Below are positions 9,891-58,560 of a DNA stretch of 64,000 nucleotides, piece by piece (within the stretch, counting starts at the first letter, position 1; each line of letters starts with the position of its first letter). The notes under the pieces are model-generated. The model did not search any database and was not told the origin of the DNA. It worked only from the letters and a program-made list of their open reading frames with translations. Both the position numbers and the translations under genes were made by a program. Location: contig CAWAWS010000008.1 of the NCBI GenBank assembly GCA_963785725.1, forward strand, positions 32,001 to 96,000, given 5' to 3'. Source of the stretch: an uncultured delta proteobacterium. GTDB taxonomy: Bacteria; Myxococcota_A; Polyangia; Palsa-1104.

Positions 9891-12769
9891 GCGGCGCCGC
9901 GGCGACCGCGGAGGCCGGCGATGCGAGCGCGTCGCGGCCGCCCTCGTTCATCGTCGGCGTCGGCGCGTCCGCCGGCGGGCTCGACGCGGTGGCGGCGCTG
10001 CTCACGACCTTGCGGCACGACTCGATGGCGGTGGTCGTCGTGCAGCACATGTCGCCGGCGGACGAGCGCGCGCTGGCGCAGCTGCTCGCGCGCGCCACGC
10101 CGTTCGCGGTGACGACGGCGGTCGACGGTGCGAGCGTCGTCGCGCACCACGTCTATCTCATTCCGCCCAATGCATCCTTGTCGATCGCGCTCGGCAAGCT
10201 GCAGCTGTCGGAGCCGCGCGACCGCGGCGCCATCGACCTCTTCTTTCGCGCGCTGGCCGAGGATCAGCGGCAACGCGCCATCGGCGTCGTCTTGTCGGGC
10301 ACCGGCAGCGACGGCACGCTCGGCCTGCAGGCGATCAAAGAGGCGGGCGGCATCACCTTCGTGGAGCAGCCGGAGCCGGCGCGCGGCGACGAGCTGCCGC
10401 GCGCGGCCTGCGACAGCGGCTGGGCCGACTACTGCGGCAGCCCCGCCGAGATCGGCCACGCGCTGCTCGAGATCGGCCGGCACCCGTATCTCGCCAGTCG
10501 GCAGCAGGAAGCGATCGTCGACGACAACGGGCTGCGCGAGCTGTTGACCGAGCTGCGCAACGCCTTCGGTCACGATCTGACGCAGTACAAGTCGAGCACG
10601 ATCGAGCGGCGCGCCGAGCGGCGCATGGCGCTGCACCAGCTCGTGCGCGTCGCGGATTACGTGGCGCTGGTGCGGTCCGATCGCGGCGAGCTGCGCGCGC
10701 TCTATCGCGATCTGCTCATCGGCGTCACCAACTTCTTTCGCGACCACGAGCCATTCGAGGCGCTGAAGAGCAAGGTGCTGCCGGCGATCGCCGCGCGCAA
10801 ACAGCCGGGCTCGGCGCTGCGCATCTGGGCGCCGGCCTGCTCGACCGGCGAAGAGGCCTATTCGCTGGCCATCGCCTGCGCCGAGCTCTTCGCAGCCGAG
10901 CCGCACGACGTGCGCATCCAGATCTTCGCCACCGACATCGACGCCGCGGCCATCGCGCGGGCGCGGCGCGGCGTCTATTCGCACAACATCGCGCTCGACG
11001 TCTCGCCCGAGCGGCTGCAGCGCTTCTTCGTCCGCACCGACAGCCACTTCCAGATCAGCCGCCGCATCCGCGACATGGTCGTCTTCTCCACGCAGGACGT
11101 CACCAGCGACGCGCCGTTCTCGCGGCTCGACCTCCTGAGCTGTCGCAATCTGCTCATCTACTTGAAGCCGGCGATGCAACAGCGCGTGCTGCGTGTGTTT
11201 CATTACGCGTTGCAGCCGCAGGGTTTCTTGCTGCTCGGCAGCTCGGAGACGGTGGGCGACTCGGCCGAGCTCTTCTCGGTCGTCGACGCCAAGAACAAGG
11301 TCTACGTCTGCAAGCACCTGGCGCTGCCGGCGTTCTTGGACGTGAACGCGGCTCGCTCGCGCGGCGAGCCCGCGCGCACGCCGCCGCCGCCGGTGCGGGC
11401 GCGGCCGGCGCTGACGTTGGCGACGCTCGCCGATCGCAAAGTGCTCGACCTCTACGGCCCGGCCGGCGTCGTCGTCAATGAGGCGCTCGACATCTTGCAT
11501 TTTCGCGGTCGCACCAGCCGCTATCTCGAGCCGACGCCGGGCGTGGCCAGCCTCAACCTCTTGCGGCTGGCGCGGTCGGAGCTGCAGGCCGACTTGCGGC
11601 GCACGACGCAGCAGGCGCTCGATCTCGACCTGCCGGCGAGCGTGACGAGCCGCTTGTGCCACGGCGAGACGCGCAGCGAGTTCAAGCTGGAGGTGCTGAC
11701 GGTCGTCGATCCGGAGACGAATGCGCGCTGTCTGCTCGTGCTGTTCCACGAGCCGCACGCGACCGAGGCGCTGCCGCCGACGGTTCGGCCGCTCGATCCG
11801 GCGCTGGACCATCGCGTCAAGGACCTCGAGCTCGAGCTGCGCTTGACCAAAGAGAGCCTGCAAAGCTCCATCGACGACTTGCAAGGCAGCAACGAGGCGC
11901 TCGAGTCGTCGAACGAAGAGCTGCAGTCGTCGATCGAGGAGCTGCAGAGCACGAATGAAGAGCTGGAGACGTCCAAAGAGCAGATTCAGGCGACCAACGA
12001 AGAGCTGATGACCGTCAACGAAGAGCTGCAGAATCGCATGGCCGAGCTGCAGCAGACCAACGACGACCTGCACAACGTGCTCACCGGCGTCGAGAACGCG
12101 GTCGTCATCGTCGGGCGCGATCTGCGCATTCGTCGCTTCACGGCGGCGGCGGAGCGGCTGCTCGGCGTTCGCGCGGTCGACATCGGGCGGCCCATCGGCG
12201 TGCTCGAGCGCTTCGTCGGCGGGCTGCGGCTCGACGCGTTCACGGACGAGGTCATGGAGTCGCTGCGACTGTCGGAGCAGGAGGTGCAGTGCGCCGACGG
12301 CCGCTGGTACCTCTTGCGCATCCTGCCCTACAAGACGCAGGAGAACTCGATCAACGGCGCCGTCATCGTGTGGAGCGACATCGACGTGCGCAAGCGCTCG
12401 TCGCGCCTGGGCGAGGACGTCGCCGCCTACGCCAGCAACTTCCTCGAGCCCATCAACCAGGCGCTGGCCATCGTCGACGGGCGACAGCGCATCGTCTGGG
12501 TCAACGAGCAGTTCTATCGCCTGTTCGGCGTCATCGCCGAGGAGACGATCAACGGCCCGCTCTCGGCGGTGCCCGGCGGTCGCTGGGACGCGTCCGACCT
12601 CACGGCGCTCTTGGCCACCGCAGCGGCGACGGGCGACAGCTTTCACGACGCGCGCCTCGTGCACTGCGGGGCCGACGGCGGCGAGCGCGCCCTGTCGGTC
12701 GGCGGCAGCCGCATTCCTCGGCTGCGCGACGACGCGCAGCTCATCCTCTTGTCCTTCGAGGTGCGCTGA
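9887..12769 (+). CDS. CheB methylesterase-CheR methyltransferase fusion with coiled coil and PAS domains
   Basis: CheB motifs GASAGG, VQHM, GTGSDG; CheR motifs [37 protein letters not shown] repeats; C-terminal PAS. Confidence 0.92.
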   Translation: MSGAAATAEAGDASASRPPSFIVGVGASAGGLDAVAALLTTLRHDSMAVVVVQHMSPADERALAQLLARATPFAVTTAVDGASVVAHHVYLIPPNASLSIALGKLQLSEPRDRGAIDLFFRALAEDQRQRAIGVVLSGTGSDGTLGLQAIKEAGGITFVEQPEPARGDELPRAACDSGWADYCGSPAEIGHALLEIGRHPYLASRQQEAIVDDNGLRELLTELRNAFGHDLTQYKSSTIERRAERRMALHQLVRVADYVALVRSDRGELRALYRDLLIGVTNFFRDHEPFEALKSKVLPAIAARKQPGSALRIWAPACSTGEEAYSLAIACAELFAAEPHDVRIQIFATDIDAAAIARARRGVYSHNIALDVSPERLQRFFVRTDSHFQISRRIRDMVVFSTQDVTSDAPFSRLDLLSCRNLLIYLKPAMQQRVLRVFHYALQPQGFLLLGSSETVGDSAELFSVVDAKNKVYVCKHLALPAFLDVNAARSRGEPARTPPPPVRARPALTLATLADRKVLDLYGPAGVVVNEALDILHFRGRTSRYLEPTPGVASLNLLRLARSELQADLRRTTQQALDLDLPASVTSRLCHGETRSEFKLEVLTVVDPETNARCLLVLFHEPHATEALPPTVRPLDPALDHRVKDLELELRLTKESLQSSIDDLQGSNEALESSNEELQSSIEELQSTNEELETSKEQIQATNEELMTVNEELQNRMAELQQTNDDLHNVLTGVENAVVIVGRDLRIRRFTAAAERLLGVRAVDIGRPIGVLERFVGGLRLDAFTDEVMESLRLSEQEVQCADGRWYLLRILPYKTQENSINGAVIVWSDIDVRKRSSRLGEDVAAYASNFLEPINQALAIVDGRQRIVWVNEQFYRLFGVIAEETINGPLSAVPGGRWDASDLTALLATAAATGDSFHDARLVHCGADGGERALSVGGSRIPRLRDDAQLILLSFEVR

Positions 12770-53958: not shown

Positions 53959-55659
53959 TCAGGGCGTAAAGTCGTACTCGCTGCCGCTGCAGGGATACGC
54001 CATGCCGCCCGGTCCGTCGCTGTTGAAGCCGTTGACGCAGCTCGAGTTGTTGTCGTCGACGTAGACGTTGATGGCGCGCTGGCCCGAGCGAACGTAGCTG
54101 AGCGTGGCGCTGTTGTCGCCGGCGTGGCGCGCCATGAACGCGTCGCCGATGGACAAGAAGTAGATGCCGTCGTTGTCGTAGGCGTCGAAGACCATGCCGC
54201 TCACCTCGCTCGGCTGATAGACGCGGTCGAGCGGGATGGCGAGCCGCTTCCACGCCGGGCTGCCGCCCATGTACGTGGCCGTCATCTGCGGGCCGTCGAG
54301 GGTCTCGCCGCTGGTCGTCTTCAGCCGCAACACGAAGCCGCCCGACACCGAGAGCGCGCACACTTTGTCGCCGCTGCCGCCGACGTCGGAGGCGTAGACG
54401 TCGACGAACAGGTATTGCTCGATGGGCAGCGTCTTGACGCCGTCGACCTTGCCCTCGCGGTGCAACTCGGAGTCGGTGATGCCGTAGAGCCACGGCGCGT
54501 ATTGGTCGACGAGCGCCTCGCGCCGGCCCGGCGACGTCGTAAAGCCGATGGCGTCGAGATCGAACGGCAGCGGGCGCACGGTGATGACGAAGGCGCTGTC
54601 GAGGCTGGCGTCGTTGCCGGGGTTCTGCGTGTTCCAGCCGGTGATGGCGCCGTCGGCCTCCTCGTCGCTGCCGGTGCCGCAGGTCTGGCCGTAGCCGCCG
54701 CGGCTCTCGAACAGCCGATTGTGACCGTCGCCGTAATAGAGGACGGGATGGGCGGCGATGAAGCGGAGCGCGCTCGTTCCGGTCGCCTCGCCGGTGCAGC
54801 GCAGCCACTCGGGCGTCGTCGTGCTGTAGTCGAAGACGGTCTCGATGTCGCAGCCGCGGCCCCAGCGCGCGTATTCGGCTTGCACGCCGGCCGCGCCGCC
54901 GCCGCAGTCGACCGCGGTGCCGCCGTTCTCGTTGGTGTAGACGATGACGTACTGCTGCGTCGCTTTGGACCAGCCGAGCACCATCGGCAGATCGTCGAAG
55001 CTCTTTTTCGTCGGCCACAAGAACACCGGCGCGTGCGCCAGGCCTTCGCCGGCGGCGCCGAGCGCGGTGGCCGACGTCAGCGTGGGCGCGCAGACGTGCG
55101 CGGCCTTCGTCGCCGCCGCGGCCGATAGCGCCGAGACGCGCAGCGCCACCGTGTCGCCGGCGGCGAGCGCGCCCAGGTTCATGCCGTAGGTGAACGAGGT
55201 CGCCCCTTGATGCAGCACGAGGTTGCCGACGAAGGTGCCGCCGCGCAGCACGTCGAGCACGAGCGCTTCGTTGCCGACTTGCGCCCACGACGTCGCCGAT
55301 GCTGACTGCGCAGCGACGGTAAAGGCGAACTCGTCGCTGCTGGCCGCGGTGGCGACGACGGTCGGCGCCGTGTCGGTCACGTCGAAGCAGCCGGCGCCGG
55401 CCGGCGCGGCGAGGTCACCGCCCGCCGCCAAATCGCCGCCGCCGGTCGGGTTCGCGAGGTCGGCACCGGCCGTCGGGTTCGCGAGGTCGGCACCATTGGC
55501 ATTCGCGAGATCGGCTGCGACGGCGAGGTCGAATGCGGCGCCTTCGGCGCGGCCGCCGTCGGCGGCGTGACCGCCGGGCGCGCTCGACGCACACGCCGAC
55601 GCCCACACAGTCGCGAACAGGAGGCCGTGACGACGAGCGGACGAGAGCGGCAGTCGCAT
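53959..55659 (-). CDS. Large hypothetical lipoprotein with a DLA-repeat linker
   Basis: Lipobox WASAC; ADLANP repeats; conserved-looking YTNENGGT..ARWGR..DIE motif; strong codon bias. Confidence 0.75.
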   Translation of the reverse strand: MRLPLSSARRHGLLFATVWASACASSAPGGHAADGGRAEGAAFDLAVAADLANANGADLANPTAGADLANPTGGGDLAAGGDLAAPAGAGCFDVTDTAPTVVATAASSDEFAFTVAAQSASATSWAQVGNEALVLDVLRGGTFVGNLVLHQGATSFTYGMNLGALAAGDTVALRVSALSAAAATKAAHVCAPTLTSATALGAAGEGLAHAPVFLWPTKKSFDDLPMVLGWSKATQQYVIVYTNENGGTAVDCGGGAAGVQAEYARWGRGCDIETVFDYSTTTPEWLRCTGEATGTSALRFIAAHPVLYYGDGHNRLFESRGGYGQTCGTGSDEEADGAITGWNTQNPGNDASLDSAFVITVRPLPFDLDAIGFTTSPGRREALVDQYAPWLYGITDSELHREGKVDGVKTLPIEQYLFVDVYASDVGGSGDKVCALSVSGGFVLRLKTTSGETLDGPQMTATYMGGSPAWKRLAIPLDRVYQPSEVSGMVFDAYDNDGIYFLSIGDAFMARHAGDNSATLSYVRSGQRAINVYVDDNNSSCVNGFNSDGPGGMAYPCSGSEYDFTP

Positions 55660-55843
55660 GGCCGGCGAGGCTAGAAGCGCGCGTCGCGACGGTCCAGCAT
55701 TGCCGGCGGCGCGGCGCAGAATTTTCGCGCCGGTTGCATTCGTCGGCCGGGTCGTTGCCGACCGTTCACGGCGACTTCGCGCGCGACGTGGCGCCGGCAT
55801 CGCGGGCGCGCCGGCGTTTCCGCGCGGGAATCGGTCGGCGCCG

Positions 55844-56389
55844 TCAACGCGCGTCGTGGTCGAGGCGGGCGGCGAAGCTGCGGGCGAGCGTGACGATGAC
55901 CGCCGCCGGCATGACGAGCCAGACGGCGTTGGGTGCGATGACGATGCCGAGGAAGCCGGTGACGTTGCCGGAGTCCAAGACGTGCTTGGTGAACCCGAGG
56001 CGACCGCAGATCTCGACGAGGAAATAGAGCACCGTCTTCCAGAACGTCGCCACGGTGACGATGAGCGCGCCGACCGCGCCGGCGCGGCTGCGACGATTGA
56101 AGAGCACCCACGCGATCACGACGACCTCGAGGAGGTTGCCCCAGCTTTGCGCGCTGCCGAAGGCGTCGAAGGCGGCGTAACGCGCGTCGTAGGTCGCGTA
56201 GAGGTGATGGCCGGGCCACAGAAAGCCGATGGGGCCGCCGACGTCGGACAGGGGCTTGGTGAGCACGAAGAGCGCGTCGTAGGTCTGAATCAGGCCGGAG
56301 ATGAGCAGCCAGATGCAGATCCAGCGCGGCAAGAGCGGCTTGGTTGCGCCGGCCGACGGCGACTGCGAGCTCGCGGAGGTGGAGGTCAT
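55844..56389 (-). CDS. EXPERA/emopamil-binding-protein-like membrane protein
   Basis: About four to five TM helices; W...YDA.FVL.KP..GG...LW....Y..YD.RY, AQSWGNLLE and KTVLYF..E motifs. Confidence 0.6.
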   Translation of the reverse strand: MTSTSASSQSPSAGATKPLLPRWICIWLLISGLIQTYDALFVLTKPLSDVGGPIGFLWPGHHLYATYDARYAAFDAFGSAQSWGNLLEVVVIAWVLFNRRSRAGAVGALIVTVATFWKTVLYFLVEICGRLGFTKHVLDSGNVTGFLGIVIAPNAVWLVMPAAVIVTLARSFAARLDHDAR

Positions 56390-56493
56390 GACCCCATCGT
56401 AAACGATCCGCGCGCGACAAGGCCGTCCCGATCGGCAGCGGCGAACGCGGGTGCATCGGCCGACGGCGTCCAGCAAGGCCGCCCGCGACGCGC

Positions 56494-56532
56494 AAAAAAA
56501 TGGCGCGCCGATCGGGTGTCGAGCGGCGCGCC
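56494..56532 (-). terminator. Intrinsic terminator downstream of the small peptide gene
   Basis: Minus strand: GGCGCGCCG-13 nt loop-CGGCGCGCC-A-TTTTTTT. Confidence 0.75.
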
Positions 56533-56560
56533 GGTGAAGCTTCGCGATCGCGGGTCGCGC

Positions 56561-56731
56561 TTACTGGAGCGTCGGATCGTGCGACGAGTGCGTGGTCACC
56601 GTCGACGGCGGGACGGTGCACTTGAGCTGGCTGGCGCCACCGACCTGACCCGTCTCTTGGGTCGACAACGTGCGCAACGTCTCTTTGGTGAGCTTGAGCT
56701 GCTTCTTCGGCTGGGCGTGCTGCTTCTTCAT
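56561..56731 (-). CDS. 56-aa putative RiPP precursor peptide (double-Gly leader)
   Basis: GAGGAG RBS; MKKQHAQPKKQLKLTKETLRTLSTQETGQVGG / ASQLKCTVPPSTVTTHSSHDPTLQ. Confidence 0.7.
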   Translation of the reverse strand: MKKQHAQPKKQLKLTKETLRTLSTQETGQVGGASQLKCTVPPSTVTTHSSHDPTLQ

Positions 56732-56775
56732 TGCGGGCTCCTCGCGCGAGCGTCTGCACTCGCGCTGTCCCGCAG

Positions 56776-56791
56776 TGCAACGCCTAGGCCG
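56776..56791 (-). promoter_or_regulatory. Putative sigma54 promoter for the peptide gene
   Basis: Minus strand reads CGGCCTAGGCGTTGCA (GG-N10-GC, TTGCA), about 45 nt upstream of the ATG. Confidence 0.5.
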
Positions 56792-56905
56792 CGCGCAACT
56801 CGGCGCCACGTGCGGATGACCGTCGCTGTTGTTGCCGTGGACGCAGCGATCTCGCTCACGCTGATGGTCCCCGCGTCCACACGTGTGATCGCGATCGCGG
56901 CGTCG

Positions 56906-58027
56906 TCAGTCGGCGCGTCCGAGCGCGCGATCGCGCCAGTCGAGGAGCGGCCGCTCGACGATCGCATGCAGCCCGAGCGCGACCACGAGCGACGTCGCCA
57001 GGCAGCAGACGAACATGGCGCTGCCGTCGCGCGCGAGCCGGTGCGGCGCCAGCGTTTGCGTCAGGTGAATGCTGGCTTTGTGCGTCAGATAGAGCGCATA
57101 CGACAGCGTCGCCAACGCGTCGGTCGGCCGCCATGCGCGCCGCGCGAGGAGCCCGTCGGGCGCGAGCGCGGCGAGCAGCAAGAGGCCGTAGGCGATGGCG
57201 ATCCACGGGAACGCGACGATCGAGCCCACGAACGATTGCGCGTCACCGAAGAGCCGCGCGGTGCCGATCAAGAGCGCGACGGCGACGACGAGGAGGCGCG
57301 CGTCGTGACGCGTGAGCGCGGCGCGCAGCGTCGGGCGCAGCCGATCGGCGGCGGCGATGGCGACGCCGACCAAGAGCCCGTCGAGGCGCGACCACGTCGG
57401 ATAATAGATCCACTCGTACCAGACGAAGGCGGCGGCGTGCGACGGCGCGACGATCCGCGCGAAGCTCACGCCGCGCACGACGCAGCCGGCGATGAGCAGC
57501 GCCGGCAGCCACGCAAAACGCCCGCGCCCGGCGCGCAGCCGCGTCGACGCGAGGAGCGCGAGCGGCAGCACGAGGTAGAACTGCTCTTCGATGCAGAGCG
57601 ACCAGGCGTGCGAGAACGTGCCCGACGTCCGCAGGTCGAGCCCGATATTCTGCGTGAAGGTGACAAAGCGCCACAGAGGTGGCAGCGCTTCGCGCTCATG
57701 AATCGCCGGCCACAGCGCGTAGGCCCCGAGCACGACCAGATAGGCCGGCACGATGCGCACGAGCCGCTTGAAGTAGAAGCGCCGCAGCGAAAACGTGCCC
57801 GTCTTGGCGATCGACTGAAACAGCTGCCGCGCGATGAGAAAGCCGCTCAAGACGAAGAAGAGGTCGACGCCGGTCCAGCCGAAGCGGCCGACGCGGTCGA
57901 TCCACGCCGGATGGGCGAACGCGCGGTAGTGAAAGAGGAAGACGAGCGCGATGGCGAGCGCGCGCAAATGGGTCAGGCCGACGAGCGTCTCGGAGGTCGG
58001 CCGCGCGCCAGCGCCGGAAGCGGACAT
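56906..58027 (-). CDS. Acyltransferase family 3 (OafA/OatA-like) membrane protein
   Basis: LRALAIALV..FH, GVDLFFVLSGFLI, R..RIVPAY, HAWSLCIEEQFY and SYALYLTH motifs. Confidence 0.92.
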   Translation of the reverse strand: MSASGAGARPTSETLVGLTHLRALAIALVFLFHYRAFAHPAWIDRVGRFGWTGVDLFFVLSGFLIARQLFQSIAKTGTFSLRRFYFKRLVRIVPAYLVVLGAYALWPAIHEREALPPLWRFVTFTQNIGLDLRTSGTFSHAWSLCIEEQFYLVLPLALLASTRLRAGRGRFAWLPALLIAGCVVRGVSFARIVAPSHAAAFVWYEWIYYPTWSRLDGLLVGVAIAAADRLRPTLRAALTRHDARLLVVAVALLIGTARLFGDAQSFVGSIVAFPWIAIAYGLLLLAALAPDGLLARRAWRPTDALATLSYALYLTHKASIHLTQTLAPHRLARDGSAMFVCCLATSLVVALGLHAIVERPLLDWRDRALGRAD

Positions 58028-58560
58028 GACGCCGCCACTGTACGTTCAGTCGGGCGGCTCGGGAATGGGCGCCTCGTCACGTCGCCGCACGACCATGGGC
58101 CGATCGACGCCGCCTGCCGGACCATCGACGGCGTGCGGACCGAGCTGCAGCCATTGCCGTGTGCGCGACAGCACAATCGTCGCGGCGCGAAGCGGCGTCA
58201 GTCGATCCCGCGCGCCTGACGCCGGGCCGTGCAGATCTCGCAGCGGCGCCACTGGGTGTGGTCGTCGAATTCCGACCGTGCGCCCGACCGATTGAGCCGT
58301 GAATGCGAGTGATGTTTATTGCTCATATTTGCATTCGCACATTGCACGCGTCATTCGACGTCAATTGAACGATTGCAATCGCGACTGGGTTTGCGACGCT
58401 CGCAATCGACGCTGTAACGGCGACGGGAAACTCGGCGACCAACGGGAAACGATTGGCCGGCTAAGTGAACGGCGCGTTTCCTCGTGAGCGAATCGCGCGC
58501 GTCTGATGCGCGCAAACAGACGGGTCTCAGCCGACGCGTTCATTGATACCGATTGGGCGC

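Follow-up and report, generated by a model that had tools for sequence, protein, structure and literature searches.

We analysed a stretch of 64,000 nucleotides (the window) from the genome of an uncultured delta proteobacterium (Myxococcota_A, Polyangia, Palsa-1104; assembly GCA_963785725.1, contig CAWAWS010000008.1, positions 32,001–96,000 of the forward strand). A short gene on the minus strand of the window, P0001 (56561..56731, 56 codons, stop included in the coordinates), is a real stand-alone gene and forms a complete small unit. With modest confidence, we favour the interpretation that it encodes a class I lanthipeptide prepeptide with its own sigma-54 promoter, matured in trans by LanB and LanC enzymes and then cleaved and exported by a C39-peptidase ABC transporter (PCAT). 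Under this interpretation, sigma-54-dependent transcription would give a monocistronic message, from which a prepeptide of 56 residues would be translated. Its leader would guide Ser/Thr dehydration and cyclisation in trans by a LanB of the type encoded on contig C47 and by a LanC, and would then be cut at G32-A33 (or G31-G32), with export through a PCAT-HlyD-OEP system. We infer promoter use, dehydration, ring formation, cleavage, export and product activity from the comparisons described below.

Gene unit and encoded peptide

The open reading frame (ORF) of 56 aa (MKKQHAQPKKQLKLTKETLRTLSTQETGQVGGASQLKCTVPPSTVTTHSSHDPTLQ) runs on the minus strand from an ATG at 56731 to a TAA at 56563–56561 and is nested in a frame of 82 aa with a GTG start (56809..56561, minus strand). 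An initial inspection of the letters alone (the sequence-only reading) had singled out the shorter ORF within the longer call; both frames were found, and codon composition favours the 56-aa form. GC content at codon positions 1/2/3 is 0.54/0.46/0.91 over the 56 codons and 0.69/0.49/0.90 in the long genes of this genome, and the 26 codons by which the 82-aa frame is longer show a non-coding-like 0.69/0.81/0.73. As high a GC3 combined with as low a GC2 was found in just 6 of 452 ATG ORFs of 50–65 aa on five contigs. The ORF had been described as hidden, which is true of the ORF track used for that reading but not elsewhere, as a public protein collection already contains the 56-aa form with 2 member sequences.

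The signals proposed around the ORF are also present. The ribosome-binding site (RBS) GAGGAG can be read directly from the sequence at 56738..56743 (minus strand), 6 nt 5′ of the ATG. An intrinsic terminator occupies 56494..56532 (minus strand) and consists of a hairpin (56532..56502), an A and a U7 tract (56500..56494). The hairpin has 9+3 bp and a folding energy of −24.9 kcal/mol (z −4.6), which was equalled by none of 200 shuffled sequences; an internal bulge in the loop kept it off the list of a simple terminator scan. Upstream, a sigma-54-like −24/−12 box with the GG-N10-GC arrangement (CGGCCTAGGCGTTGCA; 56776..56791, minus strand) stands 60 nt before the ATG.

The sole family match of the peptide was the NCBIfam leader model NF038153 (lant_leader_L1a), to which residues 1–32 align over model positions 1–31 of 32 with 21.2 bits (E 2.4e-4; 21.1 bits in a six-frame search of the genome), the curated cut-off being 22 bits. 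A Pfam scan of the 56-aa peptide returned no family. The leader (residues 1–33; 56633..56731, minus strand) carries the LxLxKx5L motif as L12-x-L14-x-K16-x5-L22, followed by V30-G31-G32-A33. Among 25 aligned precursors taken from this and related genomes (A1), L12 and L22 do not vary and L14 hardly does. Leaders with LxLxKx5L, mostly ending in Gly-Gly, are described for class I LanA peptides of Bacteroidetes, which are accompanied by a C39 protease (Walker et al, 2020; PMC7268733), and Gram-negative class I precursors with Gly-Gly leaders are described as being modified by LanC and LanB (PMC9680876). The resemblance to lanthipeptide-type LxLxKETLxxL...GG leaders that had been noted from the letters alone is thus borne out by the NF038153 match and by the published motif, and assignment of the leader to the class I lanthipeptide LxLxKx5L...GG type is supported by these sequence comparisons.

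The end of the leader can be placed in two ways. The columns of A1 set L19 at −15, L22 at −12, V30 at −4, G32 at −2 and A33 at −1, and in this register the predicted cut therefore falls after G32-A33; taken literally, the double glycine would place it after G31-G32. The G31-G32 pair on which the sequence-only reading ended the leader does exist, but the family register ends the leader one residue later. C39 domains accept GA at the end of a leader. Among the hydrophobic positions of C39 substrates, V30 (−4), L22 (−12) and L19 (−15) conform, and −7 is Thr27. The core predicted by the family register comprises 23 residues (S34..Q56; 56564..56632, minus strand), and 9 Ser/Thr and a single cysteine, Cys38, can be read from its sequence. 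The literal cut would give a core of 24 residues, for which the original count of 9 Ser/Thr, 1 Cys and 2 His is correct. Ser34 precedes Cys38 by four residues. Since no other Ser/Thr of the core precedes the lone cysteine, a single ring is predicted, and the core would carry one Ser34-Cys38 thioether formed by LanC.

Contigs from a soil metagenome run (X1) represent a strain ~94% identical across the locus, at a depth of 3.5–5.6. Compared with the window, the ORF part (56561–56713, 51 codons) has 3 substitutions and no indel, and all three changes (T39 ACC>ACT, S34 AGC>AGT and L22 TTG>CTG, within codons 7–56) are synonymous, for which the probability is 0.015 if the three are random. The 3′ flank (56451–56560, 110 nt) has 10 substitutions and 9 indel letters, and the 5′ flank (56735–56885, 151 nt) has 7 substitutions and 3 indel letters, which together make 17 substitutions in 261 nt and ~5 indel events. 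The difference between ORF and flanks has p = 0.055 for substitutions alone and p = 0.009 for substitutions plus indel events. Despite the 10 substitutions in the 3′ flank, the outer 8 bp of the terminator, with arms GGCGCGCC, are identical in X1. The promoter box reads GGCCTGCCTGTTGCA, with GGC, TTGCA and their spacing retained and the spacer altered, and no difference is listed for the GAGGAG RBS in the X1 contig spanning 56735–56885. All parts of the gene unit thus behave as though constrained, though the numbers are small.

These observations bear on the possibility that the ORF is a decaying, non-functional precursor copy or a chance frame without a consequential product. It is a singleton without an orthologue in 40 relatives, the genes next to it are not conserved within the genus and its leader scores below threshold, all of which such an origin would explain. 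However, the codon signature is gene-like, promoter box, RBS and terminator are all intact, and in X1 the ORF has accepted synonymous changes only and no indels next to diverged flanks. We consider decay or chance very improbable.

Paralogues, maturation machinery and promoter

The genome that contains the window amounts to 8.9 Mb in 47 contigs and is 88% complete. A search for paralogous leader peptides, as the sequence-only reading had suggested, found six further precursors with the same leader type; five score above the NF038153 cut-off, and one (C47b) reaches 16.8 bits. That C47b, with a score below that of the window peptide, sits in a lanA1-lanA2-lanC-lanB operon speaks for the assignment of the window leader to this family. 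A leader hidden Markov model (HMM) built here recovers these seven precursors, on which it was trained, and none beyond them. The description of the gene as an orphan therefore holds for its locus and for its core sequence but not for its leader family. The paralogues C47a and C47b are at the head of a lanA1-lanA2-lanC-lanB gene run on contig C47. The C24 precursor directly precedes a LanC gene (pair at L030:8462-9948) and is followed by an IS66-family fragment directly after the pair (10269-10706); this cluster may have been truncated by insertion. On contig C39 (a contig label, unrelated to the peptidase family) the precursor lies 5.6 kb from a LanC gene, near which there is a sigma-54 activator gene. 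C33a and C33b are each immediately 3′ of a gene for a Ser/Thr kinase with WD40 repeats, and the gene in the window, on contig C8, stands alone.

Genome-wide searches for LanB, LanC and C39 found two LanB genes (contigs C47 and C26), three LanC genes (contigs C24, C39 and C47) and one C39 exporter, none of them on contig C8. Leader homologues and the machinery for RiPP maturation and C39 export, whose absence would have spoken against the sequence-only reading, are thus present in the genome. The three LanC-like matches occupy open frames of 426–520 aa, and a LanM-type fusion is therefore unlikely. Three of the seven precursors (C47a, C47b and C24) directly adjoin LanC or LanB genes. Set against two LanB, three LanC and one PCAT, this suggests that action in trans is normal in this genome, and maturation of the window peptide in trans is plausible on that count.

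The LanB on contig C47 (L029:6111-9277 = G000 C47:158111-161277, minus strand) is colinear with an intact LanB of G004, a genome of the same genus. Its reading is spread over three frames; the breaks, near L029 8432-8452 and 8804-8826, have no homopolymer. The genes for rpoN (C20:359480-359960) and several sigma-54 activators are split in the same way, so that assembly indels are the likely cause of the breaks. The second LanB (882 aa; L033:8234-10882 = G000 C26:86234-88882, plus strand) is intact, with no LanC or leader-type precursor nearby; it is flanked by a SPFH/Band 7 gene and a prolyl oligopeptidase gene. The sole PCAT (742 aa; C39 match at C26:65111-65494), with C39, ABC_membrane and ABC_tran domains, is encoded on the same contig, 20 kb from this LanB, and HlyD and OEP genes form a single run with the PCAT gene. 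In the PCAT, Cys48, His121 and Asp137 are invariant in an alignment of 44 sequences (A4). Complex prediction for the PCAT C39 domain (residues 1–190, with A4) and the precursor (with A1) gave 0.26 and 0.28 against a mark of 0.32, in runs without controls.

Comparison of 42 genomes of the order points to the C47-type LanB as the probable partner of the leader family. The leader family occurs in 6 of the 42 genomes and LanB in 24. A strongly scoring C47-type LanB is present in 10, namely in all six leader-positive genomes and in 4 of the 36 leader-negative ones (Fisher p = 4e-5, with related genomes not being independent). LanC was found in four of the five leader-positive relatives, the exception being a genome 53% complete. 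In G004, a leader-type precursor is located 3′ of lanC-lanB, with a sigma-54 box at −64. Across 401 sampled genomes of the phylum the leader was present in 2, the genome of the window included.

The box upstream of the window gene matches TGGCAC-N5-TTGCW at 8 of 11 scored positions, and scores of 8 or more occur with a per-base frequency of 6e-4. The pattern GGC[AC][CT]N5[CT]TGCA is found 60–68 nt 5′ of the start in four of the seven precursors (C8, C24, C39 and C47a), at −60 for the window gene and at −61, −66 and −68 for the three paralogues; C47b sits in the operon behind the box-bearing C47a. The same pattern has 86 sites in the genome on both strands. For the looser GGC-N8-TGCA (1970 sites), the probability of four in seven within a 30-nt span is ~4e-9, assuming independent sites. 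The genome encodes rpoN and has 76 Sigma54_activat matches. No sigma-54 box was found before the PCAT operon, the LanB of C26 or the LanC of C39, and the precursors of relatives have boxes in 3 of 18 cases against ~2.2 expected, which is no general enrichment outside the genus. Judging by the position and sequence of the box, sigma-54 probably drives transcription of the window gene from a promoter of its own. The same box is also seen 48–77 nt before small genes at C4:90843, C6:90689, C6:139667, C19:141891 and C22:267177, which encode Lys/Ala/Thr-rich proteins with signal-peptide-like N-termini; in this genome these genes may form a set of sigma-54-driven small secreted proteins.

A number of results weigh against a lanthipeptide that is matured in trans and driven by sigma-54. 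The leader falls 0.8 bit short of the NF038153 cut-off, has Thr27 at −7, a position occupied by Leu or Met in 23 of 24 relatives, and ends in Ala rather than Gly at −1, as does only one of the 24 other members. There is one Cys in the core, and neither 5.8 billion clusters nor 1.84 billion representatives (the latter searched in full by phmmer) contain a homologue of this core; the peptide query matched only itself in both of these large protein collections, and 40 related genomes, among them four of the same genus, yielded no orthologue. Among the 38 gene-like ORFs of the 64-kb window, Pfam detected no RiPP (ribosomally synthesised and post-translationally modified peptide) enzyme or exporter, as had been noted from the letters alone; YcaO and radical SAM were not searched genome-wide. 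The split C47 LanB may be a pseudogene, and the LanB that is intact, on C26, is of a type common in genomes without the L1a leader, so that it probably acts on other substrates. The box pattern was defined after viewing the four sites, which makes its P values optimistic, and no activator site shared by the regions upstream of the four boxes was found, just GC-rich low-complexity 12-mers. The X1 contigs are shallow and show no more than three changes in the ORF. Public sequencing runs that match window positions 55800-58100 comprise 4 soil DNA runs from 2 studies and no RNA run.

Several of these points would also fit a double-glycine-leader peptide that is not a lanthipeptide, but an unmodified bacteriocin-like or signalling peptide cut and exported by PCAT-HlyD-OEP, the likeness of its leader then reflecting a common export route. 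Such a product would explain the lack of Lan enzymes nearby, the lone cysteine, the Thr at the conserved Leu of −7 and the leader score below the cut-off. The genome has one PCAT with an intact catalytic triad, and a gene for a small membrane protein follows the precursor gene on its 3′ side. Immunity genes are often small membrane protein genes placed after a peptide gene, and the arrangement here resembles this pattern. Against this explanation, the LxLxKETLRxL block, the hallmark of the LanBC-linked family, is fully retained, and C39 domains are not known to require this N-terminal block. The leader co-occurs with the C47-type LanB in all six genomes that have it. C47a and C47b are themselves one-Cys precursors inside a Lan operon. 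We therefore regard an unmodified exported peptide as rather unlikely, though as a serious alternative to the lanthipeptide interpretation.

Neighbouring genes and WD40 kinases

The upstream neighbour of the precursor gene (56906..58027, minus strand) encodes a membrane acyltransferase of 373 aa. Its earlier identification as an acyltransferase-3 is correct (Acyl_transf_3, Pfam PF01757, E 2.9e-24). The genome has six Acyl_transf_3 genes, two of which adjoin precursors, namely C8 and C33a (L034:9110-10264, minus strand); the rough chance of this is 5e-5, assuming ~7500 genes. The conservation of this neighbour that the sequence-only reading had proposed to examine was not found. In a synteny sample of 80 loci of the closest homologues (41–64% identical), no leader-type ORF lies within 3 kb (best E 0.53 with our own HMM), and these loci have no homologue of the peptide, of the membrane protein or of other window neighbours. 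The closest homologues are mostly from Chitinophagaceae (Bacteroidota), the best being a metagenome-assembled genome labelled Proteobacteria, and in four genomes of the same genus the best match is 40% identical and on another contig. We treat the acyltransferase as context only, leaving its double adjacency within the genome unexplained.

Downstream, past the terminator, a predicted membrane protein of 182 aa is encoded at 55844..56390 (minus strand). It had been labelled an EXPERA protein, which the profile scores do not uphold: the score for EBP (PF05241) is 12 bits (E 0.27), where 25.7 would be required, and Erg28 (E 0.038) is likewise under its cut-off. The best Atlas score is 0.80, and neither Atlas nor Pfam supports a family. 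A search of 5 related genomes gave no homologue at E<=1e-10, and the four genomes of the same genus have no close one. On the 3′ side of this gene, positions 53959-55800 (minus strand) encode a protein of 613 aa whose N-terminus is lipoprotein-like and which matches no family in Pfam or NCBIfam.

Elsewhere in the genome, leader peptides adjoin fusions of a Ser/Thr kinase with WD40 repeats. Two of the four such fusions, among ~167 kinase-domain loci, are placed in this way: one at G000 C33:224603-227827 (plus strand) with a precursor at C33:227888, and the other at G000 C33:328316-325109 (minus strand) with a precursor at C33:325058. The kinase gene 5′ of C33a has, 39 nt upstream, a box matching at 9 of 11 positions. 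In relatives, a kinase and/or WD40 gene lies within 1.5 kb of 13 of 19 leader loci, some of which overlap and most of which come from G015 (the 13 are L036, L039, L041-L044, L046, L047, L049-L052 and L054 in G015 and G002).

This association raises the possibility that the peptide belongs to another system altogether, being phosphorylated or bound by a WD40 Ser/Thr kinase, or O-acylated on its Ser/Thr-rich tail by the adjacent acyltransferase. The kinase genes directly upstream of C33a and C33b, the frequency of kinase or WD40 genes at the relatives' loci, and the two acyltransferase loci next to C8 and C33a are all in its favour. However, the Ser/Thr kinase nearest to the window gene lies at a distance of 26 kb and lacks WD40 repeats, the kinases linked to WD40 match generic Hanks-type models only, and many of the relatives' loci derive from the single genome G015. 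For acylation, the two precursor-adjacent acyltransferases are just 28% identical, and the 80 homologous loci are devoid of a leader-type ORF within 3 kb. Either role appears improbable to us.

A wider model would join these observations to the lanthipeptide interpretation. In it, the seven precursors of this Polyangia-like soil bacterium would form a dispersed, sigma-54-wired class I set with one leader and unrelated cores, most of them remote from any Lan enzyme, served in trans by one LanB/LanC pair and with the WD40 kinases as dedicated partners of the leader family. The prochlorosin system would thereby have a class I counterpart in a Gram-negative organism. We consider this wider model doubtful as it stands.

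Comparison with known systems

The peptide is closest to the NF038153 group, which includes the pinensin precursor PinA, Ped15, the thalassomonasins and the viridisins. It shares the leader motif, the GG/GA end and a Ser/Thr-rich core with Cys, and its genome likewise has LanB, LanC and a C39 exporter, with paralogues in canonical lanA-lanC-lanB clusters. Unlike members of that group, the window gene stands by itself in 64 kb free of Lan genes and is preceded by a sigma-54-type promoter; its peptide departs from the group in its score just under the cut-off, in Thr at −7 and Ala at −1 and in a core without relatives. The host also differs from the Bacteroidota group in that its nearest LanB and PCAT relatives are labelled Polyangia/Myxococcales by their sources. 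With PCAT-exported peptides in general it has in common the GG/GA end, hydrophobic residues at −4, −12 and −15, and a PCAT with Cys/His/Asp encoded beside HlyD and OEP, but the exporter is on another contig, −7 is Thr and cleavage is predicted only.

The prochlorosins are described as 29 ProcA precursors with one leader type and hypervariable, scattered cores, matured in trans by one ProcM (PMC12328550). The present genome is similar in having one leader type, several scattered and variable cores and fewer enzymes than precursors. It differs in that the prochlorosins are class II products of a LanM, whereas here there are class I LanB and LanC enzymes, seven precursors and a trans-maturation that we infer.

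The leader type, processing at double glycines and maturation in trans are already known. What may be new is the sigma-54-type box common to dispersed precursors and the coupling of the leader family with WD40 Ser/Thr kinases; our literature search found no paper that links lanthipeptides to sigma-54 or to WD40 kinases, which does not rule out that such papers exist. As the peptide is a singleton, only confirmation of the wider pattern would make this more than a modest advance. Precursors far from their enzymes escape cluster-based genome mining, and a gene of this kind can be recognised by its leader, by a promoter type common to its paralogues and by purifying selection in a related strain. 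If maturation in trans is true, several unrelated lanthipeptide cores would be produced by few enzymes under sigma-54 control. This would be relevant to natural-product discovery and to the regulation of secreted peptides in myxobacteria-like predators.

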